Below, piece after piece: positions 36,113-56,007 of a stretch of 64,000 nucleotides of DNA. Under the pieces are notes generated by a model. It worked only from the letters and a program-made list of their open reading frames with translations. It did not search any database and was not told the origin of the DNA. The stretch is from assembly GCA_964652685.1 (NCBI GenBank), contig CAZZBS010000001.1, positions 1,298 to 65,297 of the forward strand. Direction: 5' to 3'. The stretch is from an uncultured Lentimicrobiaceae bacterium. Lineage in GTDB: Bacteria; Bacteroidota; Bacteroidia; Bacteroidales; SKPS01. A program made the position numbers and the translations under genes. The stretch's first letter is position 1, and each line of letters starts with the position of its first letter.

Positions 36113-37387
36113 TCAATCTTTCAGGCATCTCACGGCAAATCCATTGCCTTTATTAAGGCCTCCGCCGGTGAGTTTGCGATTGTCGTATGCAAGGGAATGG
36201 CAATAAGCGAATGAAGTTGAATAATCATTGGAGGTCCAGAAATATCCGTAATGCCCCATATCCTGGAAGTTCCCGGTTCCCACAAAGCGCATACCTCCGG
36301 GCAGGCCGGTAAATCCTGTTTCATTGGTAGCACCGACGTTCAAACTATCCCAATGGACAAAGCCGGTCTCTTTCAGCTTTCCTCCGGCAAGGGTATCGCC
36401 TCCCAGTAAAGTTCTCAGCACCAGCCATTCAGGTTGGGTGGGCATATGCCAGCCAACCGGGCACAGGTTACCTGTGGCACCTACATACCACTTATACATC
36501 GCCCCGTAAGTATCAGCATAGGTAGCTGAATCATTGTTAAACCAGCAATAAGCCGGGGTTGTGAAATTCATCCATGTATTGCCGTCCGTAATGATAGGAA
36601 TGGTTGTACCATTGTTATATTTGGTGGCTTTCAGGTTCTTTGCCATCCAGGTCTGGGTGCCGATTGTCACTACCGGGTAGTGTTTTCCATTGCCATCAGT
36701 ACAGGCAATAAATTCAAAATCAACGGCCTGGCTCTGTGTGGGCACCATTGTCAGCATACGTGAATAATTACTGTACACTCCCCTGAACAGTAATCGTTCA
36801 CCGTTTTCATACGCCATCAGGATGGTATTCTTATCCCCGGCCAGTTTCCCTTGTGGCAAGTCTGTTTTTTCATGGCTGACAAGGGTTGCCCATGGCTTTG
36901 CAACATGGCTGCCAAGCACTGCAATACGTTCATCATACAACTTCCCGGATGCAGTAATCTGAAAGATGTACACCCCCTCCTTCAGGCCACCTGCCCTGAA
37001 CTGACAGCTACCCTTCGAACATTGCCATTCTTCACGCAGAAGCCGCTTGCCTGTGACTTCAAAGATCTCGAAAACAACCTGCCCCGAAGCTGGATTAATG
37101 AACCCGACCTGACATTCATCCTGCAATGGGTTCGGATAAACCTTCACACTTCCCCTTGCCCCGTCAGGCCCCTCTTCATGGATGCCACTGGTGGAAAACA
37201 GATGTAGCGTGTCTGTCCCTGCCAACGTCACAGTTGTGCCCTGGTCCAGGTTTGTAACATATACCGTCGTCACAGCTGTGCTTAGACCTGATCCGGTAAA
37301 ATGGATCAGGTAATTCTGTGCATACAGTCCATGGAAACCCACTGTAAAACAGATCAAACAAGCCGTAAAGTACACTTTTGATTTCAT
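36113..37387 (-). CDS. FISUMP-domain protein (Fibrobacter succinogenes major paralogous domain) with an internal T9SS-CTD-like module
   Basis: C-terminal YPVVTIGTQTWMAKNL...YGAMYKWY...CPVGWHMPTQPEW...GGKLKETG...TGFTGLPGG...GYFWTS...GFAVRCLKD matches the FISUMP pattern. Residues 81-158 (VKVYPNPLQDECQVGF...GVYIFQI...) look like a Por secretion tail. Confidence 0.85.
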   Translation of the reverse strand: MKSKVYFTACLICFTVGFHGLYAQNYLIHFTGSGLSTAVTTVYVTNLDQGTTVTLAGTDTLHLFSTSGIHEEGPDGARGSVKVYPNPLQDECQVGFINPASGQVVFEIFEVTGKRLLREEWQCSKGSCQFRAGGLKEGVYIFQITASGKLYDERIAVLGSHVAKPWATLVSHEKTDLPQGKLAGDKNTILMAYENGERLLFRGVYSNYSRMLTMVPTQSQAVDFEFIACTDGNGKHYPVVTIGTQTWMAKNLKATKYNNGTTIPIITDGNTWMNFTTPAYCWFNNDSATYADTYGAMYKWYVGATGNLCPVGWHMPTQPEWLVLRTLLGGDTLAGGKLKETGFVHWDSLNVGATNETGFTGLPGGMRFVGTGNFQDMGHYGYFWTSNDYSTSFAYCHSLAYDNRKLTGGGLNKGNGFAVRCLKD

Positions 37388-40798: not shown

Positions 40799-41662
40799 TC
40801 ATCCTTTTTCGCACAGGAATATCTTTTCAAACGGATCAAATCCGAAGTATGCGATTTCTTCCGGGGTAAACGTGTTCACATAACCGATTTCCGAGACATG
40901 AAAACCTGCACCGGAAATTCTTTGCCCGTAATCCTGTCCGTATTTACGCACATGGTCTCTTTGCCCGAACAATTTTTCACGCTCCTCCGGTGTTGTGACA
41001 GCCGGATCTTCCAGGGTAGTTTCAAGGTTATAGAATACCGGTGACTGGAAGATACCCCATCCCCCTCTGGCCATCACCCTGTACATTTCTGCCATGGCCA
41101 TGTGATCATTCACCACATGCTCAAGCACATGACTGCATAAGATCACATCAAAGGAATCATCGTCAAAGGGAAGATTACAAAGGTCGGCTTTCAGGATTTT
41201 TCCCGGGTAACCCTGGTAATGGGATTGCTCCGGATTCAGATCACACGGATAATAAAGGATAAAGGGCAACCCGGAAAAGAAAGTAAAAAATGGCTTGATG
41301 GGCGCTATTTCGAGCAATTTCCAGTGGATCCCGTCGAAGAGCTTCGTATGGTCATGCAGGTAATGCCAAAGGAGCCTGTGCCTGGGTAGCGATCCGCAGT
41401 TGGGACATCTGCCCGTCGGAGATTCCACCTTGCATTCCAGTCCGGATGGGGATATGCCGTGGGATTCCAAAATCCATTTATACACCGGGGCAAATGAGGA
41501 AAATTCCTGGTTGCATACCGTACAGTTCACCCCTTTGCCCCGGTATTGCTGTAACTCCATGTCGCGGATGACATGTAGGATATGCTCCTGGTTCTTTTTA
41601 ACCAGTTGGAATGCTTTTCGCCGGACTTTCCCGTTTTCTCCCGATGTATCATTCATGATCAT
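40799..41662 (-). CDS. Class I SAM-dependent methyltransferase with N-terminal zinc-ribbon-like Cys pairs
   Basis: CTVCNQEF...CPNCGSLPRHR, then LLEIAPIKPF and DVILCSHVLEHVVNDHMAMAEMYRVMARGGWGIF (Methyltransf_11-like). Confidence 0.8.
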   Translation of the reverse strand: MIMNDTSGENGKVRRKAFQLVKKNQEHILHVIRDMELQQYRGKGVNCTVCNQEFSSFAPVYKWILESHGISPSGLECKVESPTGRCPNCGSLPRHRLLWHYLHDHTKLFDGIHWKLLEIAPIKPFFTFFSGLPFILYYPCDLNPEQSHYQGYPGKILKADLCNLPFDDDSFDVILCSHVLEHVVNDHMAMAEMYRVMARGGWGIFQSPVFYNLETTLEDPAVTTPEEREKLFGQRDHVRKYGQDYGQRISGAGFHVSEIGYVNTFTPEEIAYFGFDPFEKIFLCEKG

Positions 41663-42573
41663 ACGGTGTTTCGGGTCAAATACCGGTATTGTTTCCAGTA
41701 CTTTTTCAAGGGCATGAAAATGCTGACAAGCCAGATCTTCTTCCTCAACTTAAAGAAATTCAAAAGGATAAAGAGTTTGATTTCCGATTTTCGCAATTGC
41801 CAGACCCCAGCCCAATGGATCAGGAAAACCTCCCGCCATAGCCCATGATGGAAGATTTTCAAGCCCTTTTTCAGGTTTTTTCTTCCATTGCCCGCCCAGT
41901 ATTCCACATAGTTCTGCGGATAATATGCTGTATCGATCAGATTCCACAAACTCGAATGCCTCAATCCGGAGGTAACGATGAGATAATTCAACAGCGGCTG
42001 CTCCAGGCAATACAACTCCATATGTGGGGAGAGTGCCTGCGCTTCAACGGCCCTCTGCCAAAGGGTATCAGCAGAAATATTGTTTTTTGCTGATACAATG
42101 AATCCGGTATTTGCCGCATACCGGATCTGTTCCGGTGTCAGTTTTCCTGTATCATATATGGATGGTTTCCATACCCATTTTTCAGCTTCTGAAATGTTGG
42201 AAGTGGAGGTAATGAAATCAAAATGTTCAAGCAGTTCAAATGCGAATTCAATATTCTTAAGAACGATCATATCCACATCCATATACACAAATTCATCAAA
42301 AATACCCTGCCAACAGGCCAGTTTGCGGTAATGTCCGGTCACTTCGGCATGAAACAACAAACTGATACGGTCACACAAGGACAGCATGGTTGAATCCCGG
42401 TAAACTGAAAAATGGTATTCCTCCTGTAATGCCTCCAGTTTCTCCGCATCCTTCCTGAAAGGGATAAGGCACAAGGGCAGATCGGGATGATACACCCTGA
42501 AACTGTTCAGGAAGGCAACTGTCAGATCAAGGATCCTGTCGTTGGCAAGGAAATATACGCCTCGTGTTTTCAT
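41659..42573 (-). CDS. Putative nucleotide-sugar glycosyltransferase (GT8-like fold)
   Basis: MKTRGVYFLANDRILDLTVAFLNSF start and YMDVDMIVL (DxD). ATGA overlaps on both sides. Confidence 0.5.
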   Translation of the reverse strand: MKTRGVYFLANDRILDLTVAFLNSFRVYHPDLPLCLIPFRKDAEKLEALQEEYHFSVYRDSTMLSLCDRISLLFHAEVTGHYRKLACWQGIFDEFVYMDVDMIVLKNIEFAFELLEHFDFITSTSNISEAEKWVWKPSIYDTGKLTPEQIRYAANTGFIVSAKNNISADTLWQRAVEAQALSPHMELYCLEQPLLNYLIVTSGLRHSSLWNLIDTAYYPQNYVEYWAGNGRKNLKKGLKIFHHGLWREVFLIHWAGVWQLRKSEIKLFILLNFFKLRKKIWLVSIFMPLKKYWKQYRYLTRNTV

Positions 42574-43529
42574 GTGCCTGGCTTCCCGGTATTCTTAAAC
42601 TTACCTTCATTTTGTTTCGGTATCAGCTCCGTGAATCCATATGGGTCAATCCGCATGTCGTTACCGTAATGTTCCGGATTTATATGGACAACAGAGGACA
42701 TCCCATCCCAGAAAGCTTTCCGTCCATAGGCCGGGCTCATATACCTGGCGTGTTTGAAATTCATGAAATGGAGATAAAGAAACCTTTCATCCCCATCCCT
42801 ATCATTGGTAATATGCCCGTCTTTCCAGTACCATACCGTCGGATGCAATGGATTCCCATCTTTCCACCTGCCTGGTGTCAACGGGGTGGTGTGTTGTTCC
42901 ACAAAATAAACATTCTTTCTGTACCTGACGGATGAGGGGTGGCTCCAGTCATACATCCGGTGCAACCCTCGGGGAATTTTCGCAGGATATAGGAAAAGCG
43001 AAGAAAAATAATCCTCATCAAACCGCTGATTGTGTTGCTTTTCCAGAATTTCCTGCCAGTTACTGATCCTGTAGAACGCTTTTCTCAGCCATTCTTCATT
43101 TCTGATCAGCGCCAGATGTCCTGATATGCACCAGGTATGGGTACTGATGATATTGTAATGATTAAGAATGTCATCTGTATAAAAATCCCTGATGCGGCCA
43201 TAAATCACATCGATATCACCATATCCGAAGAAATCATAGTCCTTGATCTCTTCTTCATACAAAACACCATAGGCAGGACGCAGATCGCAGAGTTTATACG
43301 GATCGGCCGTATCAAAACGGACATTAAGCTTCTGGTTGACTGTCCGGATATAATCTTCCCTTGTACAAGGCTTGAACATGATATTACCGGCATCCAAACC
43401 TTCTACAGGGCAATCTGTATGGAACAGCCAGTTGATATCAGGATTCTTTCTGCAGCTTTCAAGGAATAGCGGGAACCATTCAGGCCAATGCTCTCCGAGG
43501 AAATCAATGATGATGATGATCGATTTCAT
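42570..43529 (-). CDS. Capsule-locus-type hypothetical protein (resembles DUF6625 family)
   Basis: SIIIIIDFLGEHWPEWFPLFLESCRKNPDINWLFHTD resembles the N-terminus of a family seen in EPS loci. The family name is from memory. Confidence 0.5.
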   Translation of the reverse strand: MKSIIIIIDFLGEHWPEWFPLFLESCRKNPDINWLFHTDCPVEGLDAGNIMFKPCTREDYIRTVNQKLNVRFDTADPYKLCDLRPAYGVLYEEEIKDYDFFGYGDIDVIYGRIRDFYTDDILNHYNIISTHTWCISGHLALIRNEEWLRKAFYRISNWQEILEKQHNQRFDEDYFSSLFLYPAKIPRGLHRMYDWSHPSSVRYRKNVYFVEQHTTPLTPGRWKDGNPLHPTVWYWKDGHITNDRDGDERFLYLHFMNFKHARYMSPAYGRKAFWDGMSSVVHINPEHYGNDMRIDPYGFTELIPKQNEGKFKNTGKPGT

Positions 43530-43538
43530 AACATCCGG

Positions 43539-46040
43539 CTAATCACGACCTCCTCTTTCCCGATGCAGTTTTTCCCTGAGAACGGTTGTGAAATCCTTCA
43601 TGTGCTGCTTTTTCATGAGCCCCTGGTTTGCATCATGGATGCGTCTTTTATAGACCACCTTTTTGACTGACAGGATGGTCAGTCCTATGTGTTCAACCCT
43701 GGTAAACCAGTCAACAACTTCGGCAAGCTGCAGTTTCTCGTTCAGCGGGCCGACTTTATCAAGCAGTTCACGTTTTATGAGCAAACAACCCAGATGATAT
43801 CCCGGCATTGTTTTCAACTCCTCCCTCAGCAGGTGATGATGGGTAACTGCCAGTTCAGGGGAGACAAACTGTTCAATATCCCCCATGACCAGATCATATC
43901 CCGGGTTTTCCTCCAGGGCGTGCAGAAGTATTGAGGTATGCCCCGGCAACCAGATATCATCGGCATCAAGAAAGGCAATGTATCTGCCACACGACTCACC
44001 TATCCCTGTATTGCGGGCTGCGGCAGCACCCCTGTTTTCCTGCCTCACAATCCTTATCAGCGGCACAAAACGTTCGGCGATTTTTACTGTGTTGTCTGTC
44101 GATCCGTCATCAACGACCAATACCTCCGTATAGGCTGTATCCTGGCTTAATACGCTGTGGATTGCTTCGGCAATGTATTTTTCCCCGTTGTGCACCGGGA
44201 TGATGACGCTTACATCCACCCGTTCCTTTTTCTCCTGATAGGGATTTCGTATCCGGTCGAGTGACCTTTTGAACACTTTCAGCGCATTCAGTTCCACCAG
44301 CGTCTTTCCGCCGGTCATGTTGGCATTGTGCCTGCGGACATACAGGGTTACCTCCTCAAGCTTCTTCAGGTTGATATCCATTTCAGAAGCTCGTTTATAC
44401 CAGTCACTGTCCTCTCCGGTGTAAGCAAAAAGTGCATCAAACATGCCCACCACACTGAATGCCTCTTTCCGGTACAGTCCGGCGCCAAGGTATCCGGGAA
44501 AGGACTCCAACGGATTGCCGATATACTCATACAAACCTGTCTGAAGGTTCCGTTCCGTGTGTTGGGCATACCCCTGGACAACCAGGATGTCATCCTCTGC
44601 CAGAAGTTCATCCATCAGGTGGTTCAGGTTGTTTTCCGGCCACAGGTCGTCCACATCCAGCAAAGCGATAAAGTCACCCGTAGCTTCCATGATCCCCCGG
44701 TTCCTGGCAACCGCCGGGCCCTGGTTTTCCTGGAAGAAATACCTGTAATCAATTTTAAGCTCCTTGATTACTTCTTCGGAATTGTCGGTTGAACCATCGT
44801 TGACAAAGATGATCTCAAGGGAGGGATAATTCTGCGCTATAATGTTTTCTATGGCATCATGGATAAAATTAGCCCCGTTATATACGGGTACGATAACACT
44901 GATCAGCGGCCTGAATGATGATTTTTCCAGGTCCGGTTCCCTGGGGATGGGATGAATCCTACCGGCAAGGTACTCCTTCAGAAGGTGGGGCGCTGTATCG
45001 GTATCCTGCCCAAGCGTTAGCAAATAACATGGAAGTTCCCGGATGAGATCCGTGATGAAATTCTGTGTGTATTCACCTGCATAAGGAAGTTGTGACATGG
45101 TGGTGAATGAAAGGGCACCCAGGATCTTCCTGAAAGGTATTTCCGAAAGGATACTTATATCAGATGTGCCAATTTCAGGTTTTACGATAGCTTTTAAAGG
45201 CAATTCACCTATGATCCTGTTTTTTAATGCAGGATACAGAAAAAACAGCAGTTTTTCATACGACAGGTCCTCTTGTCTCTGTATATAGGGCGCAAATTCA
45301 GGGAAACGGTTCAGGTCATCAGGGAGGAGTTTGGCTGTGCAGTAAAGGCTTTGAACAACCGGTTCAGGCTTACGCCTGATGATCAGATAATCATCAGCAA
45401 GGTAATACAGTCCGTTTTTTAAACTTGAAAGAGCGGTGGTTGATTTGCCACTTCCCCCTTTTCCGGTGATAACAACAGCCCCGTCACTGGTGCCCACAGC
45501 AGCAGCATGCAGAAGCTGGCCGTTGTTTTTTTCCATCCACCAGTGGAACAGGGTGCGGAGGGGAGCTGCAAACACCCACATAGGAAGGTATTCCACGGTT
45601 TTCACCCAATAGAAGCCCGTGTTTGTTTCAAGGTCCATCAGGTTGAGTGAAAAATCGCTCCAGTGAAAGGCAGTCCTGATCCGTTTGCTGTTGAATCCCC
45701 AGAAATCACCCCTCTCGGTAAAATTGGCACGCTCACATGGTGGTGGCAACATCTCAACAGATGTACTCCTGCTATCCCAAATCAGGATCTCCAGATCGGC
45801 TGTCAATGGCTCTTCACTCTCCAGATGCATCAAAGCAGTCGTAAGATAAGGAACAAGTTCATCTCCTGCAAAGACAAGGCAAACAGAAGTATCCCCTATC
45901 CGGTAATAACGTTTTATCTCTCCGGTAACTGAAACAGCTTCCCTGAACCGGTCAACACTACGGTTGAAAAAATCGAGCTGTTCGGCTTCGCTCTTCTTGG
46001 GTGCATCGATACGGGGCTTATCTATTTGGGTGTTGTCCAT
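43539..46040 (-). CDS. Three-domain fusion: HPr-kinase-like P-loop domain + GT2 + GT2
   Basis: Residues about 180-225 read HAAAVGTSDGAVVITGKGGSGKSTTALSSLKNGLYYLADDYL (compare HprK ITGxSGxGKSxxAL...ADD). GT2a: ISVIVPVYNGANFI...IIFVNDGSTDNS...LLDVDDLW. GT2b: VSVIIPVHNGEKYI...VLVVDDGSTDNT...FLDADDIW. The ATG at 46040 lies one codon inside the listed TTG start. Confidence 0.85.
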   Translation of the reverse strand: MDNTQIDKPRIDAPKKSEAEQLDFFNRSVDRFREAVSVTGEIKRYYRIGDTSVCLVFAGDELVPYLTTALMHLESEEPLTADLEILIWDSRSTSVEMLPPPCERANFTERGDFWGFNSKRIRTAFHWSDFSLNLMDLETNTGFYWVKTVEYLPMWVFAAPLRTLFHWWMEKNNGQLLHAAAVGTSDGAVVITGKGGSGKSTTALSSLKNGLYYLADDYLIIRRKPEPVVQSLYCTAKLLPDDLNRFPEFAPYIQRQEDLSYEKLLFFLYPALKNRIIGELPLKAIVKPEIGTSDISILSEIPFRKILGALSFTTMSQLPYAGEYTQNFITDLIRELPCYLLTLGQDTDTAPHLLKEYLAGRIHPIPREPDLEKSSFRPLISVIVPVYNGANFIHDAIENIIAQNYPSLEIIFVNDGSTDNSEEVIKELKIDYRYFFQENQGPAVARNRGIMEATGDFIALLDVDDLWPENNLNHLMDELLAEDDILVVQGYAQHTERNLQTGLYEYIGNPLESFPGYLGAGLYRKEAFSVVGMFDALFAYTGEDSDWYKRASEMDINLKKLEEVTLYVRRHNANMTGGKTLVELNALKVFKRSLDRIRNPYQEKKERVDVSVIIPVHNGEKYIAEAIHSVLSQDTAYTEVLVVDDGSTDNTVKIAERFVPLIRIVRQENRGAAAARNTGIGESCGRYIAFLDADDIWLPGHTSILLHALEENPGYDLVMGDIEQFVSPELAVTHHHLLREELKTMPGYHLGCLLIKRELLDKVGPLNEKLQLAEVVDWFTRVEHIGLTILSVKKVVYKRRIHDANQGLMKKQHMKDFTTVLREKLHRERGGRD

Positions 46041-46069
46041 CAATCGGTTTTTTTCCTGGAGGTATGTTT

Positions 46070-47758
46070 CTATTCACAAGCCGTAAGAACACCATCATTC
46101 AGATGATAGATCTTTTCAGCAAAATTAATAACATTCCTTTCATGACTAATGATAAGGATAGCAGGTAACGGCTGGATTGAGCCCAGGTTGTCCATAATTT
46201 TACCGATGGCATTGCTGTCGAGGTGGTTGCCGGGTTCATCGAGGATTAGCAATTTAGGATTACGGTACAAAGCACGTGCGATGGCAATGCGTTGTCCCTC
46301 CCCGCCACTGAGCAAAACACCCTCATCCCCGATCGGTGTGTTATATCCTTCCGGAAGCTTCGCTACAAAGTCATCCGCCAGTGCGAGACTGGCAACATGC
46401 CTGAGTTGATCCATATCCACCTTTTCAGCACCATAAACAATGTTCTCAAGTATGCTGCCCGGAAAAAGGGGAGGGTGCTGGGCAACCACTCCAAGATGCT
46501 TACGGAACTCAACCATATCAAGCACCGGATAATGGCATCCTGACGCTTTTATTTCACCCCTCAGCGGCACCAGTAAACCACAGATCAGATTCAGGATAGT
46601 GGTTTTACCCGAGCCGTTGGCTCCGACGATGGCGACCCTCTCCCCCGGCCTGATCTGAAATTCCATACCCTTCAACACAAGGTTGTCGTCATAGGCAAAT
46701 GAAATCCCTTTCATTGTGATCTCACCGTCGAAATCGATTGTCTTCGCTCCTGTGTACAGGCTTCCCTTATGAATGGAGAAAAGTTCAAACAAAGTGTTCA
46801 GTGATACGTTCCCGGCAATGATGTCCGGAATGGAGGTCGTGATCATGTTCACATATTTATTCAGGTACATAGCAGCCAGGTAAAACGACAGGAAATCTCC
46901 AAGTGTCATGGATTTCACAGCTACAGAAATCCCACCGATAATGATGATGACAATAGCGGTCAGCCCGGTCAGGATCTCCTGCAACTGCAGGTTGACAGCA
47001 AAAATATCAGCCATGCGGCTGGTCTTTTGCTGCAGATCGACAAGGACACCCTTCTGATGGGCCATCTCCTCTTTCTGGGCCGACTGTATGGTGGTAAGGG
47101 GCATATACCTGAGGACAAAATAAATCCCTTTACTGAATTCCTCAAAAGCGCGTTGAAAAACAAAGACCCGTCGTTTGATCTTTTCCCCCATGAAACGGTT
47201 GGCAAAGATCAGTATGGGAAAAAGAGAAACAATGATAAGCAACAGATACCAGTTCAGGATAAAACAGGCAATCAAGAGCCCAAGACCGATAATGACCGAT
47301 GGTAACAACCTGGAAATAAGGGCCGTGCTCATGTTGCACAACCTCTCAGTGTCCTGTACAATGCGGGTGTGTAAAATCCTCAAATCTGATTTCGCATAAA
47401 AGAGATAAGAAAATCCATAGAGTTTCTTCAGAAGGCTTTCACGAAGGTCAAAAACAGCCTGGTTGATGATCCGTATATGGTATTTCCTTAATATTACCGA
47501 TAACACTGAATTCATCAGTCGCAGAAGAAAAATGGCAATGCCGATCCATATCAGCAGGGAAATATCATGATCAGGGATCACGACATCAAAGGCATGTTTG
47601 ACAAGCAGAAGAGACGGGATGATGATCAGGGTTTGCCCGACTGACGCAAAGGTTGTCCAGAAAATCTTGCCATATTGTCCAGAAAAGAAACCTGCATAAT
47701 ACCTCCAGGCCTTTTTTGAGAACTTTGGAAAAGAATTGACCCTGTTGTTTTGAGACAT
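46070..47758 (-). CDS. ABC exporter, fused permease + ATPase half-transporter (MsbA/McjD-like), no C39 peptidase domain
   Basis: 562 aa with six N-terminal TM segments. Walker A GANGSGKTT, signature LSGGEGQR, Walker B LLILDEP. Confidence 0.9.
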   Translation of the reverse strand: MSQNNRVNSFPKFSKKAWRYYAGFFSGQYGKIFWTTFASVGQTLIIIPSLLLVKHAFDVVIPDHDISLLIWIGIAIFLLRLMNSVLSVILRKYHIRIINQAVFDLRESLLKKLYGFSYLFYAKSDLRILHTRIVQDTERLCNMSTALISRLLPSVIIGLGLLIACFILNWYLLLIIVSLFPILIFANRFMGEKIKRRVFVFQRAFEEFSKGIYFVLRYMPLTTIQSAQKEEMAHQKGVLVDLQQKTSRMADIFAVNLQLQEILTGLTAIVIIIIGGISVAVKSMTLGDFLSFYLAAMYLNKYVNMITTSIPDIIAGNVSLNTLFELFSIHKGSLYTGAKTIDFDGEITMKGISFAYDDNLVLKGMEFQIRPGERVAIVGANGSGKTTILNLICGLLVPLRGEIKASGCHYPVLDMVEFRKHLGVVAQHPPLFPGSILENIVYGAEKVDMDQLRHVASLALADDFVAKLPEGYNTPIGDEGVLLSGGEGQRIAIARALYRNPKLLILDEPGNHLDSNAIGKIMDNLGSIQPLPAILIISHERNVINFAEKIYHLNDGVLTACE

Positions 47759-47790: not shown

Positions 47791-48255
47791 CTATTTTATT
47801 TTTGGCTCAGGCCATCCTTTTTCGTCAACGTCATGGATCGGGTCCAGCAGCAGAACATCACGCATATCGGCGTACCGGCGAAACAATGGTTTTTTGACTA
47901 AAATTTCCGAATAAACTTTTTCTGCCTTCAGTCCCTCGGGGGTTAGTGCCGGTCTATCCTGCCCGGTGGGATCTTTTTCGAGAATGATCTCATTGGCTCT
48001 GAGTTCATCGATGAATTCAATGATATACTTTTCCATATTCTGTGCGGCATCACCAAAGATCTCTTGTAGCAGGTGAATGATCTGTAAAGAATGGGCACCC
48101 TTCACGATCAGGTCCCAGATAACCGGTCCGATGCCGTCAAAGCTGTAATAGAAACCGTTTTTAAGGTTCATGATAATGGTTTCCCCCTCAATGGTTTCAT
48201 GAATCACATAGGGAGCATTTAGCTCATATAGTTTGTTTTGAAGCGAGGTGTCCAT
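47791..48255 (-). CDS. PqqD-family protein (RiPP-recognition-element-like)
   Basis: 154 aa. VIHETIEGETIIMNLKNGFYYSFDGIGPVIWDLIVKGAHSLQIIHLLQEIFGDAAQNMEKYIIEFIDELRANEIILE follows the PqqD beta-strands plus helical-bundle pattern. Confidence 0.75.
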   Translation of the reverse strand: MDTSLQNKLYELNAPYVIHETIEGETIIMNLKNGFYYSFDGIGPVIWDLIVKGAHSLQIIHLLQEIFGDAAQNMEKYIIEFIDELRANEIILEKDPTGQDRPALTPEGLKAEKVYSEILVKKPLFRRYADMRDVLLLDPIHDVDEKGWPEPKIK

Positions 48256-48306: not shown

Positions 48307-49284
48307 TCATTCACACGCGATAAGCATTCTTACATGATTCATTTCCAGGTGTGAGAACTTCTTTTCCTTCAGCGCAGAGATCAGATTCAGAAGACCGGTT
48401 TCCAGTGCGGTTTCATGTCGCCATCCAAGGATCCTCTCAGCGCGTTCGGGAGAGCCATAGAAACGACCGACATCATATTGCCGGGGGTTGGCCATCACGA
48501 TATCTGAATGGCTGCTGGTCAGGTCAAGGATCATGTGTGCCAGTTCCAACAGGGTTGTCGGCCGACCGGTGACGAAATGAACCGGTTCCAGGCTTATTTC
48601 CTGATGCCACAGGAATTTCATCGTCATAAGAATACCTCTCAGCACCTCATTCAGGTAAGTAAAATCAAATGTGTTTTCACCACCATCCACTCTGAGGGGG
48701 CTCCCTGCAAGGGCTGCAAGAATAAACGCGGGTACCACCCGGTCATGGTAATCATTGGTCCCGCCGAATACATTGGAAAAGCGGAGAATGGCTGCTTGCA
48801 AGCCTTCTGATCTTACAGCTTCAGTGACCGCTACCTCACTTTGGGCTTTGGTTTCACCGTACAGATTGATGGGAGCCAGGGGTTGTGTTTCCGAAACCGG
48901 CAGCACCGGAACATTACCATATACTTCACGGCTGCTGGAGAATATAAGCCATGGCCTCTCCTTTTGCCGGAGAATAGCATGGATGACATTGTGAATGCCT
49001 TTCAGGTTAACATCCTGACATAGTTCCGGATTCATCTCGCCATAGATTACCCTGGAGATTGCTGCCAGGTGGACCACCCCGGAGCAACCCCTGACAGCCT
49101 GTTCAACGGCGTCGGCATCCCGGATGTCTCCAAAGGCCGGTCCTGTTTCCAGGATATCAAATCCTTTTACAGAAATACCCTGCTTCTGAAGCATGTCCAG
49201 CAACGCCACGCCGATAAGGCCACAGGAACCGGTAACCAAGACCGGCTTCCCATTATTTCCCCGGTAATTGTGAGTATAGGTCAT
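48307..49284 (-). CDS. NAD-dependent sugar epimerase/dehydratase (extended SDR)
   Basis: VLVTGSCGLIGVAL (GxxGxxG) and catalytic YGETK. Confidence 0.85.
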   Translation of the reverse strand: MTYTHNYRGNNGKPVLVTGSCGLIGVALLDMLQKQGISVKGFDILETGPAFGDIRDADAVEQAVRGCSGVVHLAAISRVIYGEMNPELCQDVNLKGIHNVIHAILRQKERPWLIFSSSREVYGNVPVLPVSETQPLAPINLYGETKAQSEVAVTEAVRSEGLQAAILRFSNVFGGTNDYHDRVVPAFILAALAGSPLRVDGGENTFDFTYLNEVLRGILMTMKFLWHQEISLEPVHFVTGRPTTLLELAHMILDLTSSHSDIVMANPRQYDVGRFYGSPERAERILGWRHETALETGLLNLISALKEKKFSHLEMNHVRMLIACE

Positions 49285-49445: not shown

Positions 49446-51446
49446 CTATTCCTGGCTTTCAGGAGGATAAAGCTTCAGCGCAACCGCCTGGATCAAAGTA
49501 TCAATTTCCGGATTTGGCTGGTCAGTTAAACAGCGGTAATAACAATTGACAGCCTCTTCATATTCACCCATGGCATAATAGGTCATCCCAAGTATCTTTA
49601 ACGAACTTCTGAACAAGGGGTAAATCCTGAGCGCCTCCTGGAAAAGCTTCACAGCTCCGGGGTAATCCTCCTGCATATAATGTACGGTTGCCAGGTCATG
49701 CAACACCGGAACCGACCAGGGATTCTGTTCTAAAGCATGTTCGAGATCCCTTCTGGCCTCTCCGAATATTACCTGGCGCATACTGCTGTCAACCTGAGAA
49801 GTGCCAGTCTGCATCAGACTGTCTATCCTTTCCATACCCAACCGCATGTTGGCATTTCCCCTGAACCATAAAAGGGGCTTATTGGTTTGGTCAAGCGGGG
49901 CCCATTGGCTGTAACCAAGGTCAATGGCAAGTATGACGGTGCGCCACTGACCGGACATCTGCGCCGCATAAGCATAATTTGTATAGGTCTCTGCTTTGAT
50001 CATTTTCCGGGCTGTATGGAGCCCAAACACCAGGAATATGGCGGCAACCAGCAGAAACCACTTCCCGGTGGTTCTTAACGGCTTAATCTCCCTGCCGGAT
50101 ACTGTCAGCTGTATCCATAGAATTACAGAAACAAAGAACATCATAAACATCTGAATATCTACCCGCTCATACGGAAACGAAAAGGAGGCATCCACACAGT
50201 ACCCGGCCAGACCGGCCATCATCATGATAACCAGTATCTTTTGCCCAGGCTGTATGGATTTCCGCAAGACACCAAGAGAGGTTATTAGTACGGTGATAAA
50301 AAATCCAAGATAGAGCAGTAGCCCCGGAACGCCCTTTTCCACCAAAACCCAGATATAATCATTATGCGGCCGACGCCAGTTGTGATAATAACTCTCATCC
50401 GGATTGGGCTGATAGTAATCAGGCACACAGATCTTCCAGTTGCCGGCCCCGACCCCCAGTACCGGGTGTTCTGCAACCATGTTCAGGGTTTGCTCCCAAA
50501 TGTCCAACCTCTTGATCCTGGTTGGGGAGGAGGTGCTAAAAATCGAAGCAGCCCGCTTACCCAGGTTATCTGTTTTTTCCAAGGTCCTTGGAGGCGCTGT
50601 CCTTAAAGGATTCCTGGTGGAAAAACTGCTGACGAGAAATGCGAAAATGAACGCCGCCAATAGTATGCCCACCCCCAGAAACAGGCTCCGTCTTAATTCC
50701 AGGTTATGCTTCAGTTTGATATCCTGACGAAAAATAAAACCCAAAACAGCACTTATCAGCATAAAAACAAATAATGCAAGCCAGATCGACCTTGTCTGTA
50801 TGATCATTAAAAGAGAGATACTGAGGAACATTGCCATGCCGGTAATGATCCGAAGGCCTTTGACAGAAGTCAGCAATGCATAACCCAGGATCGGTATGAC
50901 CAGGTAGAGAATCCCGGAAAATACATTTTTATGGGACATGAGGCCGTTTACCTTGTACATCATACTGAAATCTGTCTGACGGAAGGCATGGGTGAAGTAC
51001 TGGTAATACCCGATGGTTGCAAAAGCAAGGGTCAACAGGATGGCCGATATGATGAAGGGCCGGATATTGTTTGTCCTGAAGAGGATGGCAGCCGTTATGA
51101 CAAGATAAAGCAATGACAGGGTAAGCCGCAGAATATCGAACCAGCCTTCAAGCGGATTGATGGCCGCAAACAAGGAGATGACCGATAGAATGATGAAGCC
51201 GGTCCAGAACCACACTGGCCACGACCTGAACAAGACGCCGACCTGCATCTGCAACTTCCTGAAAACAAGAAAGACCAGGACATAAAACAGCATCAAAATG
51301 GCCAGCGCCATGAATTTTGGCACCAGGGTGGGATCTACCACCGGTTTATAATAAAAAAAAGGGATAAACAAAAAGGAGGACAATGCATATAACCAGGTCA
51401 GCCATGCCGGAAATTTTACCTCCTGACTTTTCTTTTGTTTTGCCAT
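49446..51446 (-). CDS. O-antigen ligase/polymerase-like (Wzy_C) membrane protein fused to C-terminal TPR repeats
   Basis: At least 10 TM segments. IIQTRSIWLALFVFMLI is Wzy_C-like. The C-terminal 170 or so residues have TPR signatures (YPGAVKLFQEALRIYP, MGEYEEAVNCYYRCL). Confidence 0.8.
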   Translation of the reverse strand: MAKQKKSQEVKFPAWLTWLYALSSFLFIPFFYYKPVVDPTLVPKFMALAILMLFYVLVFLVFRKLQMQVGVLFRSWPVWFWTGFIILSVISLFAAINPLEGWFDILRLTLSLLYLVITAAILFRTNNIRPFIISAILLTLAFATIGYYQYFTHAFRQTDFSMMYKVNGLMSHKNVFSGILYLVIPILGYALLTSVKGLRIITGMAMFLSISLLMIIQTRSIWLALFVFMLISAVLGFIFRQDIKLKHNLELRRSLFLGVGILLAAFIFAFLVSSFSTRNPLRTAPPRTLEKTDNLGKRAASIFSTSSPTRIKRLDIWEQTLNMVAEHPVLGVGAGNWKICVPDYYQPNPDESYYHNWRRPHNDYIWVLVEKGVPGLLLYLGFFITVLITSLGVLRKSIQPGQKILVIMMMAGLAGYCVDASFSFPYERVDIQMFMMFFVSVILWIQLTVSGREIKPLRTTGKWFLLVAAIFLVFGLHTARKMIKAETYTNYAYAAQMSGQWRTVILAIDLGYSQWAPLDQTNKPLLWFRGNANMRLGMERIDSLMQTGTSQVDSSMRQVIFGEARRDLEHALEQNPWSVPVLHDLATVHYMQEDYPGAVKLFQEALRIYPLFRSSLKILGMTYYAMGEYEEAVNCYYRCLTDQPNPEIDTLIQAVALKLYPPESQE

Positions 51447-51491: not shown

Positions 51492-52484
51492 CTACCGTAC
51501 AGATTGTTTTGTCAAAAAAAGAATGGTTTTGAGCCGGAAACAGAAACCGGTCAAAAACAGGGCAGCCATGAGAAGAAACAGATTCCCCCTTGCTTTATAC
51601 ACCACTTTCATCCAGCGGTTAAGCAACACAGAAAACAAAGCCCATCTGTCAAACAACGGATTTCCTGCTGTGGCTGATGCAATACGTAACAACCAGGAGC
51701 GGTATTGCTTGATCTCTGAAAAGGAGGTTACCCTGTCCGCCCCTTTTAATGCAAGATGGATGGCAAGGTCTTCCGTCGAAGGTTCAATACCAATATCATT
51801 CAGGATAATTTGAAATACCCTCAGGTTGATCCTGTTAATGACTTCCGCATTCCGGATTATAATACTGCCTGTGTGTCTCCTGTACAAGGTAAGGTATTCC
51901 TGCATAATGCAGCCGGCACCGCTGTTGAGCATTTTCCACCACAACACATAGTCCTCCACCATGTCCAATCCCTCGGGAAACCTGAAGCCGTGTAATTTTT
52001 CCTGACGGAATACCACAGAGGAATTCACAAAACAATTATGGAAAATCATACGGGGCAACAACCTCTTCCTCCCGAAATGCATGGGCCATTTTCCGATTTC
52101 CCGATCCTTTTCATCGATTAATATCACAGAGGTGCCTGCAAATCCAAGCACAGGGTTTTTCCTGAGGAAATCAATCTGTTTCTGATATTTGGCGGGATGG
52201 GCAAGGTCATCCGAATCGAAAAATGAAATGAATTCTCCCTGTGCCATATCCAGGCCTGCATTCCTGCAATACACAATACCCCTGTTCCTTTCATTGTACC
52301 GGCAACAGATCCGTGGATCAAGAAAATCTTTCATGAGCTGAGGTGTCTGATCGGTGGAACCATCATCGATGATGATCAGCTCAAATTGCCTGAATGTCTG
52401 ATTCAACAAGGAATCAACAGCGGCCTGGATAAAATCCTGCACATTGTAAGCCAGCATAATAATACTCAAATCCACCCTGTTCAT
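51492..52484 (-). CDS. GT2 glycosyltransferase with C-terminal hydrophobic tail
   Basis: LSIIMLAYNVQDFIQAAVDSLLNQTFRQFELIIIDDGSTDQT and FFDSDDLAH. ATG at 52484. Confidence 0.85.
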   Translation of the reverse strand: MNRVDLSIIMLAYNVQDFIQAAVDSLLNQTFRQFELIIIDDGSTDQTPQLMKDFLDPRICCRYNERNRGIVYCRNAGLDMAQGEFISFFDSDDLAHPAKYQKQIDFLRKNPVLGFAGTSVILIDEKDREIGKWPMHFGRKRLLPRMIFHNCFVNSSVVFRQEKLHGFRFPEGLDMVEDYVLWWKMLNSGAGCIMQEYLTLYRRHTGSIIIRNAEVINRINLRVFQIILNDIGIEPSTEDLAIHLALKGADRVTSFSEIKQYRSWLLRIASATAGNPLFDRWALFSVLLNRWMKVVYKARGNLFLLMAALFLTGFCFRLKTILFLTKQSVR

Positions 52485-52635
52485 ACCGCGTTTCAACCAC
52501 AATGAATACCTGGGCTAAAGTACAACTTCTTGTCACATCCTGCCGGGTAGATCATATAATTGTCATACCTGTCCTGTGAGAACAACATTATTTGTAATTT
52601 AACACCCCCTTAAATAAAAAGCTACCAGGAAGCTT

Positions 52636-54678
52636 GTGAACAAGGAAATACTTGATATATCGGTTATTGCGGCAAATTTCAACAATGAGCCATTTCTGGA
52701 TGATTTTTTCAGCAGCATCCTTGATTCTTCTGTCAGACCCAAAGAACTGATCATTGTTGATGACGGATCTACAGACAAATCACTGGATGTCATTGGAAAA
52801 TATCTTTCTCATCCATTCATCAGACTGATCAGGCATGAAACGAACCTGGGCTTTGCCCATGCGCTTAATTCAGGCATCAGGGCGGCAACAGGCAAATACA
52901 TAGCCCGTATCGACCCGGATGATATCATGCTGCCCGACCGCCTGCAAAAACAATACGACTTCCTTGAGCAACACCCTGATATCGACCTTGTTGGGGGTAA
53001 TGTGATATATTTCAACAGTACATCTGGTAAAGACATCTCTGTATCAAACTTCCCAATCGGTCATAAACGGATTTTGGCAGCCTACCATGCCGGTGACCAC
53101 GGAGTTCAGCACCCAACCATCTTTGTCAGAACAGAGACTTTAGTGAAATATATCTATAACCAGGAAACCTATCCTGCAGAAGATTATAACTTGTTAGCCA
53201 CAATGATACGGGATGGCTGCAGATTCGCTAATCTGAAAGAACCTGTCAACCGAATGAGGATTCATGCCGGTAGCATCTCCAGTAAGATCAGTTATGAAAC
53301 GATTGAGAGTACCTTCGCCATGAGGGACGAGATCTTCAACATGAAATCCACAACCTGGCGTAAAAAACAGTATTTCAGGTTCATTATCAATTATCGCAGA
53401 TATCTCCTTTCCGAAAATCCCCTGATGCGGTTATTTTATGTCTCAAAGGCCGCTTTCTTCCATCCTGAAAAAGCAATACAAAGGTTCTTGTCCGATATCC
53501 CGTTCGGCATCAGGTTCTCATACTACCTGTTCCTCCTCCTTTTTTTTACCGATGAAATTGTGCGTTTTTTTGTAAAGGCCCCTGTCTTCGTTTCCGGTGG
53601 TCTGATACTGCTTATCTATCATCTGATCCTCATCAAACAATCAAAGCAATTCGATTGGAAACCATTTGCGGCTATTGCAGCCTTCCTTGTCGTTGCCACC
53701 TTTCATCTGTTCTATTCTGGTTTTCACCAGAGAAATATCTCCGACCTTTTCTTTATCCTGTTGTTCTTCACAAGTTACCTCCTTTACAGCAGGTATCCTG
53801 AAGCCCTGTCGAAAAAGATGGTTTTGGCATTTTTCGCCTGCAGCCTGATCCTTTTCATCCCTGCTTTCTTCGGAGTCAATCCCAGGCAGACACATATCTG
53901 GATTGATCCCAACAACCTTGAATCCTACAGGAAATATTTCCAGGGATTCTTCTGTCAACCTCATATCGGATCCTATTTCTTTGGTTTTCTTGGGCTGTTC
54001 TTTGGCTATCAGTATACCCGGTCTAAAACAATCAAGTGGTTGGCAATGATGCTGTTCTGCTTCATTATCAGCTTCTGGACAGGCTCAAGAACTTTCCTGG
54101 CAGCTGCAGCCCTGCCAACGATCTTCCTACTCATTATCCGGAAGAAATGGATCATCATCGCCGCTTTGACAGTCATCGGCATATCTGTGATCGCCTTGAT
54201 CGATCCATTGCTTAAACTGACCTATGACACCGTGTTTTTTCAATATTTCACCTTTGTTAAAACCTCTCTTAACCATCCGGAGAATTTATCAAGGATCATG
54301 ATCTGGAGATCATGGTTCGGTGAGATAGGAAAGTTTAATATCCTTGACTGGCTCACCGGCAAATCGTTCATTGCCTCCATATATGCCAATCAGGCAAATC
54401 CTGTGATCTGGGCAAAAGATGCCTGGTTTCATAACGATTTCCTGAGTATCCTTTTTTCATATGGCATTGTCTGTTTCGCACTGTATGTGGCATTTATCAT
54501 CCGTATTTATACCAGGTACAAAGAGGCAATTCGGACATCAGCCTTCATCTTCATCTTTTACTTCGCCATGGTGCTGACAGCATTTATTAACGGCCTGTAT
54601 TATTATTACCCTGTATTCCTGCTGGTCCTGTTCATTGAAATGGCAAACCGTCAGCACGTTAAACTCCGCAGACCTTGA
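52636..54678 (+). CDS. Fusion of a GT2 glycosyltransferase to a polytopic Wzy_C/O-antigen-polymerase-like domain
   Basis: GTG start. ISVIAANFNNEPFLDDFFSSIL...LIIVDDGSTDKS...RIDPDDIM. From about residue 290 there are 10 or more TM segments, including FWTGSRTFLAAAALPTIFLLII. Confidence 0.8.
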   Translation: MNKEILDISVIAANFNNEPFLDDFFSSILDSSVRPKELIIVDDGSTDKSLDVIGKYLSHPFIRLIRHETNLGFAHALNSGIRAATGKYIARIDPDDIMLPDRLQKQYDFLEQHPDIDLVGGNVIYFNSTSGKDISVSNFPIGHKRILAAYHAGDHGVQHPTIFVRTETLVKYIYNQETYPAEDYNLLATMIRDGCRFANLKEPVNRMRIHAGSISSKISYETIESTFAMRDEIFNMKSTTWRKKQYFRFIINYRRYLLSENPLMRLFYVSKAAFFHPEKAIQRFLSDIPFGIRFSYYLFLLLFFTDEIVRFFVKAPVFVSGGLILLIYHLILIKQSKQFDWKPFAAIAAFLVVATFHLFYSGFHQRNISDLFFILLFFTSYLLYSRYPEALSKKMVLAFFACSLILFIPAFFGVNPRQTHIWIDPNNLESYRKYFQGFFCQPHIGSYFFGFLGLFFGYQYTRSKTIKWLAMMLFCFIISFWTGSRTFLAAAALPTIFLLIIRKKWIIIAALTVIGISVIALIDPLLKLTYDTVFFQYFTFVKTSLNHPENLSRIMIWRSWFGEIGKFNILDWLTGKSFIASIYANQANPVIWAKDAWFHNDFLSILFSYGIVCFALYVAFIIRIYTRYKEAIRTSAFIFIFYFAMVLTAFINGLYYYYPVFLLVLFIEMANRQHVKLRRP

Positions 54679-54789: not shown

Positions 54790-55935
54790 TCATGACCGGG
54801 AATGCTTGTACCTGATTCTCCTGGTAAGATAATACCAAACGATGATGATACGGTTTTTCCCTTTTGTCCGGAACCGTATAAATTGCAAAAAACCAAACAT
54901 CTGCCGGAAAAAACCCTTTTTATCAGATTGTCGCAGATACTCTACCAACAGCAGGTGGATCTTACCCCGGAAACCTTCAGGGATCATATCCGGGTTCTTT
55001 TGGTCATAACGATAGATCAAACGTTCAGCAAAGGTTATGGGTATCATTTCAAGATCATCCATGACCCTGGCAGGGATGGGTGCTTTGAAATGGCAGAGAA
55101 GATAATCCAGCGCTTCCCTGATCTGTAATACAACTTTATACTTTCTAACCTGCTGTGCAAACCTGTTCCAGTCTATCGGATATTCTTCCGAACGAAGCAT
55201 GACCAGTGCATCGGCGATCCACCGGATGGGTGGCTCCGGATTCCATTTCAGTCCGTGAAGGATCACATGTAACAGGTTGTCCGCAGAGCCAAGGGCATGT
55301 GTCTGTATCTCCATAAAATTCAACGGAATGGCATGGTCCCAGAAATCACGGTCATTGCCCTGCCCAAGCGACTCGAAAAAGGGATACCAGTGCAGATCAA
55401 ACTCAACTCCCTCTTCATTGTAAAACATCATACTCCTGCCATAGCGAAGGTTGTATTCAATATACTCTTCATAATCAGCCTTCCAACCCGCTGTATGCAA
55501 TAATGCGATCCCATCGGTGGCCCTATTCCTGGGGATCAGTACATCAATATCTGCCATCGGCCTTGCCCCGAGGTCTTTATAGTATTGTAAAGCCAGAACA
55601 GGCCCTTTCAGCAACAGGGTTGGGATTCCATCATCATGGAAGAGATTCAGGAATTGCCTGGATCGATGGAACAGGTTTACATTTTTATACCAGGCATGCC
55701 GGTAGATGCCTTTCAGCTTCATCATGCGCGGGTCCCCGACACCAAGCCTTGCAAGATTCCGATACAGGAGCGGCAACAAACGGAATGAACCGTGATCAAG
55801 AAACGCTTCCTCATTCCATGATTCAATCCATTGCTTCCAGGCCGACCGTGCTTCATCACCATTCAGCAGAGCCGCTTTGAGCAACCATTCCTGATGCTCA
55901 TCCGGCCAGGGAGCCACTCCTTTGGGTATCGTCAT
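54790..55935 (-). CDS. Nucleotidyltransferase family protein (NTP_transf_5 / PF14907-like)
   Basis: LLLKGPVLALQYYKDLGARPMADIDVLIPRNRA, then FDLHW and LLHVILHGLKWN. ATG at 55935; the listed GTG at 55959 is also possible. Confidence 0.8.
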   Translation of the reverse strand: MTIPKGVAPWPDEHQEWLLKAALLNGDEARSAWKQWIESWNEEAFLDHGSFRLLPLLYRNLARLGVGDPRMMKLKGIYRHAWYKNVNLFHRSRQFLNLFHDDGIPTLLLKGPVLALQYYKDLGARPMADIDVLIPRNRATDGIALLHTAGWKADYEEYIEYNLRYGRSMMFYNEEGVEFDLHWYPFFESLGQGNDRDFWDHAIPLNFMEIQTHALGSADNLLHVILHGLKWNPEPPIRWIADALVMLRSEEYPIDWNRFAQQVRKYKVVLQIREALDYLLCHFKAPIPARVMDDLEMIPITFAERLIYRYDQKNPDMIPEGFRGKIHLLLVEYLRQSDKKGFFRQMFGFLQFIRFRTKGKNRIIIVWYYLTRRIRYKHSRS

Positions 55936-56007
55936 AAACCAGATCTTTATTGCCTGCACGGATTGGAGATGGAATGCAAATCATCAGCTCCTGCAGGATC
56001 AGGTGCA

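Follow-up and report, generated by a model that had tools for sequence, protein, structure and literature searches.

The fusion gene and its domains

The DNA analysed here (the window) is a 64,000-nucleotide stretch of contig CAZZBS010000001.1 from an uncultured Lentimicrobiaceae bacterium, and its element of interest is a reverse-strand gene that fuses an N-terminal kinase-like module (the N-module) to two glycosyltransferase family 2 (GT2) domains. The gene lies in a tight run of reverse-strand genes extending from a sugar epimerase gene to a methyltransferase gene (Table 1). Its uninterrupted open reading frame (ORF), 43539-46043, gives 834 residues from a TTG at 46043; the ATG at 46040 gives 833, and the database protein P0001 is identical and likewise 833 residues long. 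The unbroken ORF and its database copy bear out the single polypeptide at 43539-46040 that a preliminary description had read from the sequence. That description had also named a frameshift or an assembly error as a possible source of the fusion. Comparison excludes this: more than 50 independent assemblies, spread over several phyla, show the same architecture with the same linker lengths. The fusion gene is one real conserved protein, neither a product of chance nor an artefact.

The catalytic core stretch of the N-module (45390-45509) translates to HAAAVGTSDGAVVITGKGGSGKSTTALSSLKNGLYYLADD. Here, the P-loop GKGGSGKS occupies residues 194-201 and LADD follows at residues 215-218, in agreement with their earlier placement. 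Across 28 diverse N-modules, the invariant residues are H179, G194-K-G-G-x-G-K-S201 and D217-D218-Y219, together with P102-C103, F108-T-x-R-G-D113, H127, W146, R163 and F313-T-T315. The P-loop pattern G[KR]Gxx GK[ST] is kept in 118 of 120 homologs. When a profile of the 28-module alignment is compared with the PDB, the best matches are the HprK/P entries 1jb1, 1kkl and 2qmh (E 4e-5), followed by 1ko7, 3tqf and 1knx. H179, K200/S201 and D217/D218 align with H140, K161/S162 and D178/D179 of Lactobacillus casei HprK/P (1jb1; residue numbers derived from the chain offset), whose catalytic roles are established in the HprK/P literature. The equivalent of HprK/P E163 is Thr or Ser in the N-module family.

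Scores against curated kinase families stay below threshold. The Pfam model Hpr_kinase_C (PF07475) covers residues 177-227 at 21.3 bits, under its gathering score of 33.3. Among the NCBIfam models, HprK-related kinase B (TIGR04355) gives E 1.5e-6 and 27.6 bits against a cut-off of 200, HprK-related kinase A (TIGR04352) 3e-5 and 23.3 bits against 200, HPr(Ser) kinase (TIGR00679) 5e-4 and 19.4 bits against 240, and ScmC (TIGR04249) 3e-3 and 16.9 bits against 125. Stand-alone relatives of the module likewise fall below the TIGR04355, TIGR04352 and TIGR04249 cut-offs. With scores well under the cut-offs, membership in TIGR04352, TIGR04355 or ScmC is ruled out; several relatives bear "ScmC (faint)" as their precomputed Pfam label.

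An AlphaFold2 model of the N-module alignment has a pLDDT (predicted local distance difference test) of 89.8 and a predicted template modelling (TM) score of 0.89. Its top Foldseek matches are ATP-dependent phosphoenolpyruvate carboxykinases (PEPCKs; E 6e-11, query-normalised TM 0.55, ~410 aligned columns), and HprK/P entries are absent from the best 50 matches listed. HprK/P itself belongs to the PEPCK fold class. A confident PEPCK-like model over ~410 columns suggests that the whole 370-residue unit is a two-lobed PEPCK/HprK-superfamily module and, as modelled, more than an HprK C-domain. The preliminary description had proposed an HprK-like P-loop domain, with structure prediction as the check on its catalytic residues. 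The superfamily assignment stands: the fold is PEPCK-like and the catalytic His, P-loop Lys/Ser and Asp-Asp are retained in the alignment. The extent and family do not, as the module appears larger and two-lobed and scores under the PF07475, TIGR04352 and TIGR04355 thresholds. Nor is it an unrelated P-loop NTPase, HprK/P giving the best profile matches and PEPCK the best fold matches.

The remainder of the protein matches Pfam Glycos_transf_2 (PF00535) in two stretches, from residues 382 and 612 (234.9 bits, E 6e-70). With a full motif set in each, these are the two complete GT2 cores, both with DGSTD and DxDD motifs, that had been read from the translation. Both DGSxD and both DxDD motifs are kept in 55 of 56 long homologs. 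Domain 2 shares 45-48% identity with free-standing GT2 genes of the surrounding cassette and 34% with domain 1; being nearer to the former, it looks, on sequence, like a neighbouring GT2 gene captured by the fusion. Its identification as the ortholog of the first downstream GT2 of the short, one-GT2 form was rejected on a mixed BLAST ranking (48% to the second downstream gene in locus L004, 45% to the remaining one in L001). The best PDB match of domain 2 is the A2 domain of the chondroitin polymerase K4CP (2z86, E 1e-27), and the top two of domain 1 are GalT1 (5hea) and K4CP (E 4e-20); heparosan synthase is also among the nearest GT2 enzymes with solved structures. MftF is among the better NCBIfam matches of the fusion protein (2e-36), below the MftF cut-off.

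Spread and genomic setting

Among 5.8 billion proteins searched, more than 50 have a length of 817-857 residues and match the fusion protein at 42-75% identity and 94-100% query coverage. These long, two-GT2 homologs come from Bacteroidales, Sphingobacteriales, KSB1 and Lentisphaerae. Independent assemblies with full-length homologs (817-865 residues, 42-75% identity, 95-100% coverage) are from Bacteroidales/Lentimicrobiaceae, Crocinitomicaceae (including one on a 3.9 Mb chromosome), KSB1, Smithella and Lentisphaerae. The same search found a larger set of ~600-residue homologs in Syntrophales/Smithella, Planctomycetota, Nitrospirota and Dadabacteria. This short form consists of the N-module and GT2 domain 1; in BLASTP, the fusion protein matches one such protein, P0060, at 56% identity over residues 15-599. 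A locus survey with one representative genome per species recovered 80 loci, nearly all from metagenome-assembled genomes (MAGs) and with Mb-scale contigs among them. The closest relatives of the fusion gene are in Lentimicrobiaceae MAGs, and the top locus match is from this family (72% identity). The one-GT2 fusion is commoner than the two-GT2 fusion: where the gene was readable, 58 of 84 loci have the N-module with one GT2 domain, 22 have it with two and 3 have it alone. At locus L088, in a Gemmatimonadota MAG, a 1427-residue ORF (7154-11437) carries an N-terminal extension of ~950 residues, the kinase-like module at residues 950-1298 and one GT2 domain; the ORF might represent yet another fusion, or else read-through from genes upstream.

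On sequence grounds, the N-module appears to define a large family of its own. An exhaustive profile search of 1.84 billion representatives, clustered at 50% identity, gave 8,852 clusters at E<=1e-3, of which 2,124 reach E<=1e-30. Among the best 148 readable relatives, 108 are stand-alone proteins of 300-449 residues, 26 have a single additional domain and 5 have two. Separate GT2 genes follow the stand-alone genes of ~350 residues, in the order PqqD, kinase-like, GT2. Natural fusions join the module to an N-terminal GT2 domain (P0161, P0210), an epimerase (P0255), an MsbA-like ATP-binding cassette (ABC) exporter (P0221) or a PqqD domain (P0266), and these sequences appear to tie the parts of the cassette to each other.

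Hundreds of kinase-like::GT2 proteins are present in public databases, where records such as HRZ43233.1, MFC1730874.1 and HUN54985.1 call them only "glycosyltransferase"; the architecture is not rare. A literature search covering the fusion architecture, PF14907, NTP_transf_5, TIGR04352/5, DUF6625 and the combination of PqqD-type recognition element, glycosyltransferase and HPr kinase found no paper on the fusion. The earlier impression of an undescribed architecture holds in that respect, but the architecture is common and an analogous gene set was published in 2026 (PMC13381572). It is a common but unstudied variant inside a large family of PqqD-associated kinase-like enzymes.

Across 89 loci, PqqD is present in 72, a PF14907 (NTP_transf_5) nucleotidyltransferase in 71, extra GT2 genes of ~238 residues in 58 (about two per locus) and an ABC exporter in 54. 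Less frequent members are sulfotransferases (14 loci), Wzy_C-TPR proteins (11), radical S-adenosylmethionine (rSAM)/SPASM enzymes (10) and a polytopic membrane protein of ~460 residues (10, the window included). In other phyla the cassette is compact, comprising PqqD, NTP_transf_5, sometimes the ABC exporter, kinase-like::GT2(-GT2) and one to four small GT2 genes; an rSAM/SPASM enzyme, sulfotransferases, Wzy_C or MBOAT/AlgX are further components of some loci. The host phyla are Bacteroidota, Desulfobacterota, Nitrospirota, Gemmatimonadota, Acidobacteriota, Proteobacteria and others. One locus, L089, belongs to a cultured isolate, Rhodohalobacter sp. 614A.

In the PqqD-family protein of the window, residues 10-92 form a RiPP (ribosomally synthesised and post-translationally modified peptide) recognition element (RRE), which a variable linker joins to a conserved tail at the C-terminus (residues 120-154). 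Its AlphaFold2 model is a winged-helix RRE, closest to TbiB1 (5v1v; target-normalised TM 0.85) and FusB1 (6jx3). These lasso-peptide B1 RREs comprise ~85 residues without a conserved tail, whereas the cassette protein adds both linker and tail. The tail consensus is P123-x-[LF]-x-x-Y128-x-D-M-x-D-x-L-L-L-D-P-I-H-D-V-D-x-x-G-W-P149, and 11 of the 18 columns invariant among 58 PqqD homologs fall within the tail. The model shows an additional beta strand, predicted with confidence, at residues 124-128. Residues 131-154 are modelled with low confidence or predicted disordered, as would be expected of a motif that folds only on its partner. In P0266 the tail lies internally, between the PqqD domain and the kinase-like module. 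We infer from the models that the tail is an enzyme-docking element, possibly a leader-like one. Position 129 is Ser/Thr in 78% of sequences and Ala in the window protein and some close relatives. The idea of the tail as a modified core was reduced to a minor alternative on this Ala and on the internal tail of P0266. A second candidate, "WPEPKI" at the end of the PqqD protein as a [Y/W]xxPx[L/V/I] leader, is not conserved in L001, L002 and L004 and was set aside as chance.

Precursor searches covered several kinds of ORF. The small ORFs upstream of PqqD in L001, L002 and L004 contain no recurring candidate, and of the two small genes called downstream in L001 and L002, neither is related to the other. 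Within the window cluster, neither the intergenic gaps (<=227 nt) nor the nearby uncharacterised ORFs hold a precursor candidate with a [Y/W]xxPx[L/V/I] leader. Clustering of all ORFs within 9 kb of the kinase-like gene, in the loci where that gene was recovered, gave no conserved small-ORF family; divergent or distant precursors could escape such a procedure. The isolate locus L089 likewise gave no recurring small ORF. A lasso-peptide cluster was rejected, with neither a cyclase (Asn-synthase-like) nor a B2 protease in the window cluster or related loci.

Table 1. Features of the fusion gene and of its neighbourhood, in window positions
Feature	Position	Strand	Remarks
Fusion gene, kinase-like module + GT2 + GT2	43539-46040	-	stop codon 43539-43541
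N-terminal kinase-like module	44925-46040	-	residues 1-373; predicted two-lobed PEPCK/HprK-superfamily fold
Walker A P-loop GKGGSGKS	45441-45464	-	residues 194-201; translation, 28-homolog alignment, alignment to 1jb1
Catalytic core stretch, H179 to D217-D218 (LADD)	45390-45509	-	alignment to L. casei HprK/P
GT2 domain 1	44235-44915	-	about residues 377-603; Pfam, BLASTP, motifs NDGSTD 415-420, LDVDD 462-466, GEDSDW 543-548
GT2 domain 2	43542-44225	-	about residues 607-834; Pfam, motifs DDGSTD 645-650, LDADD 692-696, AEVVDW 774-779
NAD-dependent sugar epimerase/dehydratase	48307-49284	-	first gene of apparent operon; same position in L005/L006
PqqD-family RRE, 154 aa	47791-48255	-	Pfam PqqD 5e-9, lasso_PqqD_Bac 6e-11
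Conserved tail of PqqD protein	47794-47898	-	residues 120-154
MsbA/PglK-like ABC exporter	46070-47758	-	transmembrane domain-nucleotide-binding domain half-transporter without peptidase domain; Pfam/NCBIfam
DUF6625	42570-43529	-	downstream operon gene
Npun_R2821/GT8-like sugar transferase	41659-42573	-	downstream operon gene
S-adenosylmethionine methyltransferase	40799-41662	-	downstream operon gene
PF14907 (NTP_transf_5) nucleotidyltransferase	54790-55959	-	Pfam 1.2e-41
Wzy_C+TPR	49446-51446	-	Pfam
GT2	51492-52502	-	Pfam
GT2+Wzy_C	52636-54678	+	Pfam
Polytopic membrane protein, 469 aa	37615-39024	-	no Pfam/NCBIfam match; family adjoins cassette in 10 loci
SGNH-like	56061-57239	-	cluster edge
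GDSL	57307-58869	+	cluster edge
SxtJ-like	58851-59249	+	cluster edge
Carbamoyltransferase	59424-61289	+	cluster edge

In the window itself, the exporter gene ends 26 nt upstream of the fusion gene. The order of the DUF6625, Npun_R2821/GT8-like and methyltransferase genes repeats in L005 and L006, as does the tailoring set at the cluster edge. The NTP_transf_5 gene, at some distance from the fusion gene here, lies directly between PqqD and the fusion gene in most related loci (L001-L004, L007, L089). The pairing of SxtJ-like protein and carbamoyltransferase suggests a carbamoylated glycan, and the 174-nt gap between their genes may hold a DUF5989-type small gene, the trio being annotated in L005 and L006. 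The cluster (about 37.6-61.3 kb) lacks an initiating phosphoglycosyltransferase as well as Wzx and Wza/Wzc. In the whole window a single initiating sugar transferase was seen, a WbaP-type phosphoglycosyltransferase (Bac_transf + CoA_binding_3) at 4223-5626 (+), ~32 kb from the cluster with unrelated genes between.

Several further observations concern the cluster and its relatives. Both Wzy_C (O-antigen ligase/polymerase-like) proteins of the window are unusual, one having an N-terminal GT2 fusion and the other a C-terminal TPR fusion. The family of the 469-residue membrane protein, also found in L002 (14322-15716), could be a periplasmic-side glycan-handling enzyme. Sulfotransfer_3 genes (~240 residues), one to three in tandem, follow the cassette in 14 loci (L001 at 13370-14119, L012, L014, L037 and L065 among them), a parallel to the sulfotransferases known from lasso clusters of Firmicutes. 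An rSAM/SPASM enzyme is encoded directly after the cassette GT2 genes in L002 (13346-14317) and nine other loci of Desulfobacterota/Nitrospirota. In the Rhodohalobacter locus, four GT2 genes are followed by two paralogous uncharacterised proteins of 466 and 421 residues (16713-19501) with an H-I-R-Q-G-D-T motif, which we take to recall the HxRRGD motif of fucosyltransferases. Elsewhere in the window, three proteins carry Por_Secre_tail (type IX secretion sorting) domains (16142-18292, 25691-27352 and 36113-37387), in keeping with an origin in Bacteroidota.

A proposed pathway and its alternatives

With moderate confidence, we regard the fusion gene as the central enzyme of a conserved PqqD/PF14907/GT2/exporter cassette that would proceed from acceptor phosphorylation through glycan build-up to export. 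The product is probably a phosphate-linked glycoconjugate. We infer the chemistry and the step order; the residue conservation, the tight gene association and the multiple fusions are observed. The first step would involve docking of the RRE protein on the kinase-like module via its C-terminal tail, with the RRE holding the acceptor. Next, the PEPCK/HprK-type module would use ATP to phosphorylate a hydroxyl, most likely that of a Ser and possibly repeatedly. Both this activity and its acceptor are modelled on the paeninodin and LPP (linear polyphosphorylated peptide) kinases; the catalytic residues they would require are retained in the alignment. The PF14907 enzyme would then attach an initial sugar to the phosphate, a reaction reported in pseudomycoidin. 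The fused GT2 domains and the neighbouring transferases would extend the glycan from nucleotide sugars, and methyl-, carbamoyl- and acyltransferases would decorate it. Finally, the ABC exporter would carry the product across the inner membrane, where its ligation or polymerisation may fall to the Wzy_C/TPR proteins and the polytopic membrane protein. The fusion would hard-wire the phosphorylation step to the GT2 step, for which relatives would use adjacent separate genes.

Phosphorylation followed by two glycosyl transfers on the same substrate had been proposed in the preliminary description. The order finds a parallel in the partner sets of the lasso and LPP systems. The scheme is less direct than envisaged: a separate nucleotidyltransferase probably acts between the phosphorylation and GT2 steps, no substrate gene was found, and the sequence of reactions itself stays a proposal. 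The acceptor is the weak point of the model because no precursor gene was found, and non-peptide or carrier acceptors therefore stay in consideration. The adjoining rSAM/SPASM enzyme, typically a peptide maturase, is the strongest hint of peptide involvement.

Several points weigh against the proposed pathway. Matches to kinase-family hidden Markov models lie far under curated cut-offs and cover mostly the P-loop region, and the superfamily includes PEPCK, a small-molecule kinase, with one stand-alone member giving a weak FomB match. The tie to LppK and PadeK is by analogy of gene content. A strand from the tail of the modelled PqqD protein may itself occupy its RRE groove, and the sole Ser/Thr-rich conserved position of that tail is Ala in the window protein. 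No precursor gene was found in the window or in ~70 related loci, in searches of small-ORF families and of ORFs upstream of PqqD. Likewise, Pfam annotation identifies no leader peptidase (B2 or SpI-like) in the window cluster, L001-L007 or L089-L091.

One tentative and somewhat unlikely alternative would be a polysaccharide or glycolipid pathway without a peptide, in which the substrate of the module is a sugar, a growing glycan or a lipid carrier, or the module forms a P-O-P bond, and PqqD serves as a repurposed scaffold with its own tail filling the groove. The lack of both a precursor gene and a peptidase among about 90 loci is consistent with this, as are the PEPCK-nearest fold of the whole module, the FomB match, and the abundance of glycan genes at the loci (Wzy_C, MBOAT/AlgX, carbamoyltransferase, SGNH, sulfotransferase). 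The confident extra strand that the tail adds to the RRE model, and its retention as an internal segment in the PqqD::kinase fusion P0266, would also suit a scaffold. However, characterised lasso-B1-type RREs all bind peptide and their HprK-like partners all phosphorylate peptide Ser (PMC13381572, PMC8498205), rSAM/SPASM enzymes join the cassette in 10 loci, and the best sequence matches of the module are to the protein kinase HprK/P, not to PEPCK. It is improbable that the acceptor is the PqqD-tail protein or the fusion enzyme itself, serving as a carrier for a Ser-phosphate-linked glycan before transfer or export. Such a carrier would account for the missing precursor gene, and the extreme conservation of the tail, the predicted disorder of its last 24 residues, as expected of a presented segment, and the scattered Ser/Thr in the linkers would fit it. 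No Ser/Thr position is conserved, however, with Ala at position 129 in the window protein, and a tail placed directly before the kinase-like module in P0266 fits docking better than an acceptor role.

The N-module could instead be a non-catalytic nucleotide-binding, regulatory or oligomerisation domain that controls the GT2 domains. This would agree with the below-threshold kinase-family matches and with the Thr/Ser in place of HprK/P E163. We consider it very unlikely: the catalytic His, the P-loop Lys/Ser and the Asp-Asp pair stay unchanged from one phylum to another, the N-lobe has many more invariant polar residues (R111, D113, H127, R163), and the module is mostly a stand-alone protein, not an appendage of glycosyltransferases. 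A frameshift or misassembly, or a tailoring enzyme of a lasso cluster, is scarcely credible for a gene whose architecture recurs in so many independent assemblies of several phyla, Mb-scale contigs included, and whose cluster and related loci contain no lasso cyclase or B2 protease.

The pathway from acceptor phosphorylation to export also allows a more specific reading, which is rather unlikely. In it, the cassette would assemble a glycan on a peptide or protein anchor in place of a lipid one, with an RRE whose leader-like docking tail permanently recruits the kinase, a Ser-(poly)phosphate primer, a glycan built by PF14907 and GT2 enzymes, MsbA-like export and Wzy_C-type ligases. If so, the cassette would provide a phosphoserine analogue of undecaprenyl-diphosphate priming across many Gram-negative phyla, and would descend from RiPP machinery that was turned to the synthesis of envelope glycoconjugates. 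More generally, an acceptor that is a peptide or protein would imply either an abundant and novel class of RiPP-like products that carry glycans, or a novel way to prime glycan synthesis. The trio of PqqD, HprK-like and PF14907 proteins has long been present in genome annotations, with LPP (2026) as the one system studied experimentally. The Rosetta-stone fusions suggest that the kinase-like enzyme works physically with glycosyltransferases, RRE, exporter and epimerase, and so point to a phosphate-linked glycoconjugate; the system is extended from Bacillota to at least 10 other phyla. As one host, Rhodohalobacter sp. 614A, is in culture and the catalytic residues are defined, the chemistry is testable.

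Comparison with known systems

HprK/P phosphorylates Ser46 of HPr in the context of carbon catabolite control. The likeness of the N-module to HprK/P (1jb1, 1kkl, 1ko7) consists of the aligned P-loop, catalytic His and Asp-Asp. The alignment spans only about 50 residues, however; the N-terminal domain of HprK/P is absent, and the N-module has a different conserved N-lobe, a replaced E163 and a PEPCK-like overall shape. None of the cluster genes scanned against Pfam and NCBIfam is an HPr or ptsH/ccpA-type gene, and the context is one of glycan biosynthesis. The best NCBIfam matches of the module, TIGR04352, TIGR04355 and ScmC (TIGR04249/PF27840), are uncharacterised HprK-like proteins. TIGRFAMs describes them as co-occurring with PqqD proteins, and ScmC also with rSAM/SPASM enzymes.

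The GT2 half resembles K4CP (2z86) and heparosan synthase (8vh7) in having two GT2 (GT-A) domains per polypeptide. This similarity is at family level only, and these polymerases have neither a kinase-like module nor an RRE partner. Mycofactocin biosynthesis (RRE MftB, GT2 MftF, methyltransferase MftM) is likewise RRE-dependent, with GT2 glycosylation followed by methylation. The parallel lies in the logic alone: mycofactocin biosynthesis lacks a kinase step, and the cassette has no MftA, MftC, MftD or MftE equivalent.

Closer in gene content are the LPP clusters defined in Bacillota (Popov et al., Nat Commun 2026; PMC13381572). Their core comprises a precursor with a YxxPxVL... leader, the HprK-like LppK, the RRE protein LppB, an SpI-like peptidase, an MsbA-like pump and an NTP-transferase; LppK adds several phosphates to Ser3 of the core peptide (PMC13381572). 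As the paper describes them, the clusters often lie inside capsule loci, their final product is unknown, and the family does not extend beyond Bacillota (PMC13381572). RRE, kinase-like protein, NTP-transferase and MsbA-like exporter form a set common to both systems, and both lie inside glycosyltransferase-rich polysaccharide loci. In contrast to the cassette, around which neither was found, LPP clusters have an SpI-like leader peptidase and one to three precursor genes. The cassette in turn occurs in Bacteroidota, Desulfobacterota, Nitrospirota and other phyla, its RRE has a conserved C-terminal tail, and its kinase-like module is fused to, or encoded directly before, GT2 enzymes.

Among lasso-peptide tailoring systems, the HPr-kinase homologs PadeK, ThcoK and PsmK phosphorylate the C-terminal Ser of paeninodin-type precursors, and in pseudomycoidin the nucleotidyltransferase PsmN subsequently adds one or two hexoses to the phosphate (PMC8498205). 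An HprK-like kinase acting on a peptide Ser, followed by a nucleotidyltransferase that adds hexoses, parallels the enzyme set of the cassette, and sulfotransferases accompany some of these lasso clusters as they do 14 cassette loci. The macrolactam cyclase, B2 protease and lasso precursor of those clusters are absent from the cassette, which in the window has dedicated GT2 enzymes instead, two of them fused to the kinase-like module. By analogy of gene content, the fusion cassette is best described as a variant of the LPP/lasso-tailoring kind.

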